Virus record (IMG/VR): IMGVR_UViG_2690315994_000016
Location: 1 to 27,303 of that record
Origin: a virus
Lineage: Duplodnaviria; Heunggongvirae; Uroviricota; Caudoviricetes
Direction: 5' to 3' (one strand)
Length of the DNA stretch: 27,303 bases
The position numbers and the translations under genes are program-made. Positions within the stretch are counted from its first letter, which is position 1; each line of letters starts with the position of its first letter. Shown piece by piece: positions 22,841 to 24,279 of this stretch. Below the pieces are notes generated by a model. That model searched no databases. It was given only the letters and a program-made list of their open reading frames with translations, and was not told where the DNA came from.

Positions 22841-22884
22841 TGTAGGAATTTCGGACGCGGGTTCAACTCCCGCCAGCTCCACCA
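22841..22884 (+). other. ssrA: 3'-terminal fragment of ssrA (tmRNA): att core repeat
   Basis: tgtaggaatttcggacgcgggttcaactcccgccagctccacca matches the tmRNA 3' end (acceptor/T-arm and CCA); upstream sequence is unrelated AT-rich DNA, so only a fragment. Confidence 0.8.
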
Positions 22885-22920
22885 CTTTTTAGTTGTTTGA
22901 AGTACAATGAAGTCTACTAA

Positions 22921-22952
22921 GCCCGCACAGCACAAGCTCTGCGGGCTTTTTT
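22921..22952 (+). terminator. Rho-independent terminator after the ssrA fragment
   Basis: 7 bp stem gcccgca/tgcgggc with 12 nt loop followed by TTTTTT. Confidence 0.7.
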
Positions 22953-23049
22953 ACGTCTATTGTCGTCCAGTGAGAATTGCTGAGAACTACGAGTTATGGC
23001 ACCCTGAATGAGACCCACTAAGAAGGGTCCAAAAACCGAGGGTCCCAAA

Positions 23050-24279
23050 ATGGCAAAAATCGCTAAGAAGCTCACTGACACTGAAATCAAAAGCACCAAG
23101 CCAGCCGACAAAGAAATCAACTTGTTTGACGGAGATGGTTTGATACTACGAATCGCTCCCCTCTCGAAAGGAGGAAAGAAGAATTGGTATTTCAGGTATG
23201 CAGTGCCAGTGAGTAAAAAAAGAACCAAAATGAGCCTTGGGACCTATCCTCACCTTACACTGGCAAGAGCCAGAGCCTTACGTGATGAATATCTTTCCTT
23301 TCTGGCAAATGGTGTTGATCCACAAATCCATAACAACGATAAGGCGAAGGCATTAAAGAGTGCTACTGAGCACACTCTCCAAGCCGTAGCGCGGAAATGG
23401 TTAGATGAGAAGGTAAAGACATCAGGTATCTCACAAGACCATGCAGCAGACATCTGGCGCAGCTTAGAGAGAAATGTCTTTCCTGGTCTGGGTAATGTCC
23501 CTATCAATGAGATCCGGCCTAAGCTCTTAAAACAACACCTTGATCCTATTAAGCAACGAGGCGTATTGGAAACTCTACGCCGTATCATTTCACGTCTGAA
23601 TGAAATCTTCAGGTGGGCAGCTACTGAAGAACTTATTGAGTTCAACCCGGCTGACAACCTTGGTCAAAGATTCAGTAAACCAAAAAAGCAAAATATGCCT
23701 GCCCTTCCCCCAAGCGAATTGCCAAGGTTTATGGAATCTTTGACGAATGCGTCAATCCGGTTGGAAACACGTATGCTAATTGAATGGCAATTGTTGACAT
23801 GGGTTCGTCCGGGTGAAGCCGTTCGCGCAAGATGGTCTGATATTGATACAACCAACAGCATTTGGAACATTCCTGCTGATTTCATGAAAATGAAAAAGCC
23901 TCACAAAGTTCCTTTGAGTAAAGAAGCTTTGCGCATCCTTGAATTAATGAAATCAATAAGTGGGCATAGAGAATGGGTTTTCCCCAGCATTAAAGCGCCT
24001 CTTAATCATATGCATGAACAAACAGCCAACGCAGCTATCATCCGAATGGGGTTCGGAGGCGAGCTTGTAGCTCACGGTATGCGTTCTATTGCGCGAACAG
24101 CGGCAGAGGAGTCTGGTAAATTCAGAGCTGAAGTTCTTGAGGCAGCGCTTGCCCACTCGAAAAAAGATGAAATTATCGCAGCATACAATCGTGCAGAATA
24201 TCTGATAGAGCGACAGAGTTTGATGCAATGGTGGAGTGATTACGTTCAAGCTCAAAGATCAAATGCTCTGGTAGCCTAA
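23050..24279 (+). CDS. P4/CP4-57-type tyrosine integrase (IntA-like, DUF4102 arm-binding N-terminus)
   Basis: MAKIAKKLTDTEIKSTKP...LFDGDGLILRI N-terminus typical of P4-family integrases; C-terminal R...H..R..Y region; immediately downstream of ssrA 3' end and terminator. Confidence 0.9.
   Translation: MAKIAKKLTDTEIKSTKPADKEINLFDGDGLILRIAPLSKGGKKNWYFRYAVPVSKKRTKMSLGTYPHLTLARARALRDEYLSFLANGVDPQIHNNDKAKALKSATEHTLQAVARKWLDEKVKTSGISQDHAADIWRSLERNVFPGLGNVPINEIRPKLLKQHLDPIKQRGVLETLRRIISRLNEIFRWAATEELIEFNPADNLGQRFSKPKKQNMPALPPSELPRFMESLTNASIRLETRMLIEWQLLTWVRPGEAVRARWSDIDTTNSIWNIPADFMKMKKPHKVPLSKEALRILELMKSISGHREWVFPSIKAPLNHMHEQTANAAIIRMGFGGELVAHGMRSIARTAAEESGKFRAEVLEAALAHSKKDEIIAAYNRAEYLIERQSLMQWWSDYVQAQRSNALVA

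Follow-up and report, generated by a model that had tools for sequence, protein, structure and literature searches.

A 3′ end of the tmRNA gene ssrA lies between two integrase genes of different families in a stretch of viral DNA, which raises the question of how the fragment came to lie there and which of the neighboring genes belong to which element. The window referred to below is the whole stretch that was analyzed, 27,303 nucleotides of the Caudoviricetes record IMGVR_UViG_2690315994_000016 from IMG/VR. A sequence-only reading had proposed that two elements were integrated in tandem at ssrA. The analysis supports, with a probability of about 0.93, the explanation that the fragment is the attR core (P-O-B′) of a Fels-2-type, 186-like P2-family prophage integrated at ssrA, abutting an earlier island with a P4-type integrase. 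The features of the window are as follows.

1-22884: right approximately two-thirds of a P2-like prophage (Peduoviridae, Elveevirus-like), up to attR; assigned from the match to Cartapus and co-linearity with EC5502
19199-19831 (+): 186-type CI repressor; Pfam Phage_CI_repr and Phage_CI_C, annotated likewise in EC5502 and Cartapus
19833-20846 (+): prophage tyrosine integrase, Fels-2 type, ssrA-specific lineage; Pfam Int_N and Phage_integrase
20860-22617 (-): anti-phage dCTP deaminase (predicted function); NCBIfam NF041025 and PADLOC dCTPase
22725-22839 (+): phage P arm of attR; conserved with the Cartapus attP and the Fels-2 P arm
22840-22884 (+): displaced ssrA 3′ end (T-arm, 3′ acceptor strand and CCA), prophage attR core
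22885-22954 (+): island-borne leader and intrinsic terminator; from the fold and the same sequence after ssrA in O55:H7
23050-24279 (+), in an open reading frame at 23008-24279: P4-type (CP4-57 IntA-like) integrase; 23050 is the likely RefSeq-style start
24318-24734 (+): hypothetical protein of 138 amino acids, island cargo
24721-26532 (-): DUF6119/TIGR04141 protein, island cargo
26601-27278 (-): HxsA, island cargo

The displaced 3′ end of ssrA

Positions 22840-22884 (+), ATGTAGGAATTTCGGACGCGGGTTCAACTCCCGCCAGCTCCACCA, are identical at 45 of 45 nucleotides to the end of ssrA in E. coli K-12 and EC5502, through the terminal CCA. This is one base more than the approximately 44 nt of tmRNA first recognized there. 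In the O55:H7 strains, ssrA has a C at the second base of this stretch, and identity holds only from 22842 on. The core stretch was matched in all 5426 complete E. coli genomes, with the match at ssrA among the matches listed. A 32-nt sub-pattern of the core occurs once in the window and in none of 100 shuffles.

Judged by its sequence, this stretch is a fragment and not a gene, since ARAGORN found no tmRNA gene in a scan of the whole window, the Rfam tmRNA model stayed below its gathering threshold (34.7 bits vs 47 in a permissive local scan, with a convincing alignment at the 3′ end only), and what precedes the fragment is unrelated to ssrA. Alignment to ssrA revealed no similarity left of 22840, so the full gene is not contiguous with the fragment; contiguity would have pointed to a misreading. 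At gathering thresholds, an Rfam scan of the whole window returned no RNA families. A pattern search of the whole window found no second copy of the core. Three 15-mers with 2 mismatches, at 1187, 4844 and 17551, were rejected as core copies because they lie within phage genes and their flanks are dissimilar.

The terminator that had been read behind the fragment is confirmed as a hairpin at 22919-22948 followed by a T-run (to 22952), with a folding energy of -20.5 kcal/mol and z = -5.0. Such a strong terminator downstream, a promoter-like TTGAAA-18-TATAAT at 22801-22830 just upstream and the alignment of both ends of the Rfam model IsrM (RF02763) to 22875-22952 with 56.6 bits would fit an expressed small RNA gene, an analogue of IsrM, in place of an inert recombination scar. 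However, this score is far below the gathering threshold of 376 bits, for which reason IsrM membership was rejected; the 253-nt body of the model is missing here, and only model positions of about 1-20 and 274-329 align. A single promoter-like site does not exceed the number seen in shuffles (mean 1.4); it lies in the AT-rich P arm, and its -10 and -35 hexamers are not kept in Cartapus or Fels-2. A small RNA gene at this position is thus very improbable.

The prophage to the left of the fragment

The part of the prophage within the window comprises, in order, the tail and baseplate, head, replication and lysogeny modules, followed by attR. Positions 107-22884 match Escherichia phage Cartapus (Peduoviridae, Elveevirus) with 97.9% identity over 82% of that stretch. 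Co-linearity with the window was further seen for a prophage present in E. coli EC5502 and 600468; in EC5502, it occupies the interval from ssrA to the fragment. A 186-like lysogeny module, with CI, a Cox/Apl-like gene, CII, Fil and DinI, is common to Cartapus, EC5502 and this prophage.

The integrase had been called 186-type, which holds at the level of the family (55% identity to 186 Int); its precise relative differs and is the Fels-2 lineage, as identity to Fels-2 Int reaches 91%. Identity to HP1 Int is 53%. The targets of these integrases also differ, Fels-2 Int using ssrA in Salmonella LT2 and 186 Int using ileY. The prophage enzyme is classed by sequence as a Fels-2-type, ssrA-specific P2-family integrase because it is 91% identical to the integrase of an ssrA-using phage and because the adjoining P arm is conserved. 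Salmonella ssrA prophages of the Fels-2/SopEPhi/RE2010 type and Cartapus share paired GGCGGCA repeats in the P arm and the ssrA core with this prophage.

Attachment sites of the prophage

The P arm at 22725-22839 carries two tandem repeats, ATGGCGGCA at 22726-22734 and TTGGCGGCA at 22737-22745, both of which are kept in Cartapus and Fels-2. An additional TAGCGGCAA is located at 22698-22706. Read on the other strand, the P-arm repeats resemble the arm-type Int consensus of 186, YAYCGCCAYTY, as annotated in the 186 record. They are candidate integrase binding sites, and the AT-rich stretch behind them is probably an IHF region. The 160 nt from 22725 to 22884 are 80-85% identical in RE2010, SopEPhi, SEN8, Fels-2 and P2-like phages of Klebsiella and Yersinia. 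Because the matches to this region begin exactly at 22725 in those phages, this position can be taken as the left boundary of the att region in the phage.

Cartapus, a cos-delimited virion genome, shows the attP from which such a site derives: the same 45-nt core lies at 23419-23463 on the minus strand (sequence L003), and the site reads a P arm of the window type (22725-22839), the core and then a P′ arm. The P′ arm, AATAAATCAAGGGGTTACGTGAAAGCGTAGCCCCTTTTT, aligns with the sequence right after intact ssrA in EC5502 and in strain G5, and starts with a hairpin (-19.8 kcal/mol, z = -4.9). From the attP core and this hairpin, it follows that the phage brings ssrA both a 3′ end and a terminator in exchange for its own. 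Accordingly arranged attL sites are found in EC5502 and G5, where the whole of ssrA is followed by the P′ arm as in Cartapus.

A full ssrA gene and a further copy of the core, for which a search of the flanking genome had been proposed, were both found in EC5502, which is 98% identical across the junction. In this genome, the 45-nt core is present in exactly two copies, one at the end of ssrA (L001 6854-6898) and one at L001 41053-41097. The two copies flank the prophage of approximately 34 kb, and the intact ssrA is located at the end opposite to the fragment. The proposal of an att core duplicate common to two elements at ssrA is supported by EC5502 and by the O55:H7 and G5 genomes described below.

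States of the ssrA site in related genomes

Complete E. coli genomes present the ssrA site in all four states, namely empty, with the island only, with the prophage only, and with both in tandem. A comparison with empty sites had been recommended and was run; the O55:H7 strains lack the prophage, and in H142 and many other genomes ssrA is joined directly to the flank on the side of ypjA. In the island-only O55:H7 strains, ssrA is followed by the sequence of the window from 22842 onward at 100% identity, with the same P4-type integrase. Strain G5 represents the prophage-only state: it has the same prophage with the deaminase, then ypjA, and no P4-type integrase. The junction of P arm, core and ypjA flank recurs in 95-108 other E. 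coli genomes. The attP, attL, attR and attB sites are thus all seen in relatives, and prophage and island are present or absent independently of each other.

The tandem state is represented by EC5502, 600468 and the present window, and is found in most of the best 25 E. coli matches, 20 of which continue into the P4-type integrase (annotated as 'integrase domain-containing protein'). In the best two tandem genomes, the island cargo diverges from the window after approximately 24906. The set of complete E. coli genomes contained no genome with both this prophage and the exact O55:H7-type island, and none covering more than 81% of the window.

These site states bear on the idea that the prophage, the deaminase and the P4-integrase island form one composite mobile unit with two integrases, within which the fragment is an internal relic. 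Prophage and island do adjoin in many E. coli genomes, and both could in principle be excised together if the intact ssrA recombined with a distal site. Against this, the island stands alone in O55:H7 and the prophage alone in G5 and about 100 other genomes. The Cartapus virion genome lacks a P4-type integrase, and its att region stops at the core. Since each of the two occurs alone at ssrA, a single composite element is practically excluded.

Assignment of the anti-phage deaminase

The sequence-only reading had located a deaminase gene and a 186-type integrase on the other side of the fragment, and both are indeed there, at 20860-22617 (-) and 19833-20846 (+). The deaminase exceeds the cut-off of the NF041025 equivalog model (420.3 bits, cut-off 400) and matches PADLOC dCTPase with E = 2.4e-146, which is the basis of its predicted anti-phage function.

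It had been considered ambiguous from the sequence which element owns each cargo gene, and this did not hold for the deaminase, which lies inside the prophage. The gene is located left of the conserved P arm (22725-22839), between int and att; it accompanies the prophage in the island-free G5 and is absent from island-only strains. For these three reasons, it is assigned to the prophage cargo and not to the island cargo. Among deposited phage records, no near match to the deaminase was found, and only the 160-nt att region was matched.

What lies between int and the P arm varies: the 1.76-kb dCTP deaminase here, a RES-domain gene in Cartapus and nothing in Fels-2. The int-att slot has been described as a minor defense hotspot of P2, with 3% of P2 systems (PMC13586616). 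Related E. coli prophages are annotated with further defense-type genes, namely gapS1, an S8 peptidase and AAA/P-loop NTPases, the slot of which is not assigned.

The island to the right of the fragment

The integrase at 23050-24279 (+) reads away from the fragment, as had been noticed, and it has the P4-type set of Pfam domains: Arm-DNA-bind_3 (PF13356), Phage_int_M (PF22022) and Phage_integrase (PF00589). It scores 441.7 bits against NCBIfam NF007246 (cut-off 434) and shares 48% identity with the CP4-57 IntA of K-12. In O55:H7 and nine other species, this integrase gene directly follows ssrA.

Where the island lies directly against ssrA, the leader and terminator at 22885-22954 provide the gene with its terminator. 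A 41-nt terminator segment is found exactly in 14 species-representative genomes across Enterobacterales, in 9 of which it stands directly behind a full tmRNA gene. By these comparisons, the leader and terminator are island sequence and not E. coli backbone. The same leader also stands behind displaced ssrA fragments of approximately 30 nt in Photorhabdus and approximately 36 nt in Superficieibacter, and behind a degenerate one in Salmonella diarizonae. These three cases look like more tandem arrays, formed by other elements.

The three cargo genes behind the integrase are found in the same place in O55:H7 strain 2013C-4465. The O55:H7 island continues with Hxs maturases, a P4-type integrase remnant and an ABC-three-component system. 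This remnant, a second and truncated integrase, lies 7 kb downstream in that island and is 58% identical to the C-terminus of IntA. Searches of the O55:H7 relative by blastn-short and by pattern revealed no distal ssrA repeat of at least 13 nt within 48 kb. Matches to a 15-mer of the core with up to 2 mismatches occurred there on the opposite strand only, beyond ileY. Taken by its gene content, the right-hand element looks like a decayed island with a P4-type integrase, for which the term integrated element describes origin and not mobility. It is an element separate from the prophage, apparently older and probably immobile.

The earlier description of a P4/CP4-57-like islet is therefore retained for the integrase and its 48% identity to IntA, and is not extended to a demonstrable P4-like satellite, as no distal repeat was found for the element in the O55:H7 relative. 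A functional pair of a P4-like satellite and its P2-like helper might be suspected because a P4-type integrase adjoins a P2-like prophage and such satellites are common in E. coli (PMC9122126), yet it is scarcely credible, as the 3 kb of the window beyond int contain a small hypothetical gene, DUF6119 and HxsA, psu, delta, sid, alpha and alpA are found neither there nor in the annotated O55:H7 island with its different continuation, and the window has no AlpA-like excisionase.

CP4-57 is the nearest well-known counterpart of the island. There, too, the integrase gene points away from the end of ssrA, with a homologous terminator separating CCA from int. According to the K-12 annotation, CP4-57 starts inside ssrA, 15 nt short of the end of the gene, and its other boundary is a 14-nt psaA repeat. 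From the position of the boundary in ssrA, the last approximately 15 nt of the fragment also form the left core of the present island. The cargo differs, as CP4-57 carries alpA, abpAB, rnlAB and others, whereas this island carries DUF6119, the Hxs system and others. CP4-57 has the psaA distal repeat (of the form CCGCCAGC[T]CCACCA), whereas a search of the nearest island-only relative yielded no such repeat. Finally, the left core of CP4-57 lies in a working ssrA, whereas that of this island lies in a displaced, non-functional ssrA fragment.

Probable formation of the tandem array

The two elements would have been brought together in the following way. The island with the P4-type integrase would have lain downstream of ssrA beforehand, its left junction being the last approximately 15 nt of the gene. 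The incoming phage would have carried an attP in which the final 45 nt of ssrA are duplicated exactly, flanked by a P arm, bearing arm-type integrase repeats and an AT-rich stretch, and by a P′ arm that opens with a terminator hairpin. Within the 45-nt identity block, the integrase would then recombine the two sites, so that the host ssrA end is swapped for the phage copy and the phage terminator. The position of the crossover within this block is inferred, and so is whatever may be said on the present mobility of either element.

As a consequence of this exchange, ssrA would stay whole beyond the window, where the prophage has its left end, and would be followed there by AATAAATCAAGGGGTTACGTGAAAGCGTAGCCCC. 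Judging from the 98%-identical relatives, the intact gene should lie approximately 11-12 kb left of window position 1. The original 3′ end of ssrA would have been pushed approximately 34 kb downstream, to 22840-22884, and the fragment would be common to both elements, bounding the prophage on its right and the island on its left. The newcomer would enter the intact copy of ssrA, with the older junction moving outward. Excision of the prophage would restore attB, in which ssrA is directly followed by CTTTTTAGTTG.

The island appears to have arrived first, because the island part of the window is 100% identical to that of the island-only O55:H7 strains. A caveat to this order is that the displaced fragment contains the P4-type core as well.

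Relation to known ssrA arrays and implications

That integrases of the P2 and P4 families use the ssrA 3′ end in a nested manner, with tandem arrays as the result, was reportedly described by Williams in 2003. Elements of the P2 and P4 types that integrate at ssrA, such as Fels-2, SopEPhi, CP4-57, Stm27X, OI-108 and others, appear in Table 1 of PMC10107115, which cites Williams 2003, and tandem arrays are mapped routinely by Islander/TIGER (PMC4383910). In the known ssrA arrays, the target is regenerated at one end and a displaced fragment marks the junction, as is the case here. Successive elements with integrases of different families likewise use nested sublocations of one 3′ end, again as here. 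This array is therefore one more instance of an already known arrangement and does not differ in kind from known ssrA arrays. Both the nested use of the site and the cargo slot between int and att have been described before, and to these the finding adds little. It does delimit the prophage, with the right end at 22884, and the assignment of the deaminase aids annotation and the tallying of which mobile element bears which defense gene.

A functional consequence may follow from the layout. Excision of CP4-57 in K-12 leaves ssrA with ΔT357, by which tmRNA is inactivated (PMC10107115). In the tandem layout, the left core of the island lies in the dead fragment and the prophage supplies the working 3′ end, so that excision would be uncoupled from the loss of tmRNA. 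It is thus conceivable, though on balance doubtful, that excision of the island would not inactivate tmRNA here and that, conversely, a ΔT357 host would have its ssrA repaired when the phage integrates. In strain G5, where ssrA is intact at attL, the attR fragment bears ΔT357 (GCCAGC-CCACCA) and runs into the ypjA flank, which may be the footprint of such an excision or repair event. Most prophage-only strains retain T357 (202 bases in the record vs 201 in the query), and G5 is the exception. If this proposal is true, the tmRNA-inactivating effect of CP4-57-type excision would be separated from the working ssrA gene.

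ssrA lesions in E. coli G5 and WB61

E. coli G5 carries the P2-like prophage without the island, the P4-type integrase element found to the right of the displaced ssrA fragment in the window. The displaced fragment of G5 reads GCCAGC-CCACCA, and its lesion is ΔT357, the same as that of psaA, the far-end repeat of CP4-57 in K-12. The ypjA flank follows this fragment, and the ssrA at attL is intact (loci: genome records L008, about 33440-33460, of G5, and L024, 1506-1868). Two histories fit these findings: the island was excised from a tandem array, or the phage integrated into a host that already had ΔT357. 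The T is kept by most prophage-only strains other than G5.

The sole ssrA of E. coli WB61 (L009, 5683-6041) has the 3' end CGCCAGC-----CAATCATG, an acceptor stem lacking TCCAC. The same 5-nt lesion is given for excision of Eco48X, OI-108, and Stm27X (PMC10107115, Table 1). Because of this acceptor-stem lesion, the tmRNA of WB61, a natural isolate, is predicted to be inactive, unless the lesion is an assembly error.

The island leader in other species

The leader and terminator of the P4-type island also follow displaced ssrA fragments in three other species:

Photorhabdus heterorhabditis, L020 2714-2760: fragment of about 30 nt, 5' of the leader
Superficieibacter electus, L017 about 1560-1600: fragment of about 36 nt, 5' of the leader
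Salmonella diarizonae, L021 about 6400-6445: degenerate fragment with a CT deletion, 5' of the leader

These fragments point to other tandem arrays in these species, formed by elements that differ in the sublocation they use within the 3' end of ssrA.

IsrM is an sRNA encoded by a Salmonella island. Both ends of its Rfam model align to window 22875-22952 (56.6 bits; gathering 376): model positions of about 1-20 align to the CCA end of ssrA, and the leader and terminator of the island align to positions 274-329. This interval lacks the 253-nt stretch that lies between the two ends in the model. That only the two ends align suggests that the junction at which Salmonella IsrM lies is homologous to this one, with a displaced ssrA fragment on one side and a P4-type integrase on the other.

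Cargo of the island and the prophage

The DUF6119/TIGR04141 gene of the island (window 24721-26532, minus strand) is intact and encodes 603 aa, whereas in the one record inspected of O55:H7 strain 2013C-4465, it is frameshifted according to RefSeq, although the DNA is nearly identical.

Two slots of the prophage are low in GC:

2110-2679, plus strand: 189-aa orphan ORF (GC dip, 0.38) amid tail and baseplate genes
11074-13400: cargo block (GC about 0.42) between the portal gene and the DinI/replication genes

The orphan at 2110-2679 has no match in Pfam or PADLOC. Its slot is variable in related prophages, with other hypothetical genes in EC5502 and G5. The block at 11074-13400 occupies the GpQ-GpA hotspot, a classical one in P2-like phages, and includes:

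a DUF4145 protein with a weak PD-T7-4 match
a 193-aa protein weakly similar to ShosT/PsyrT
a 189-aa orphan

The prophage thus probably has a second defence locus in this block.
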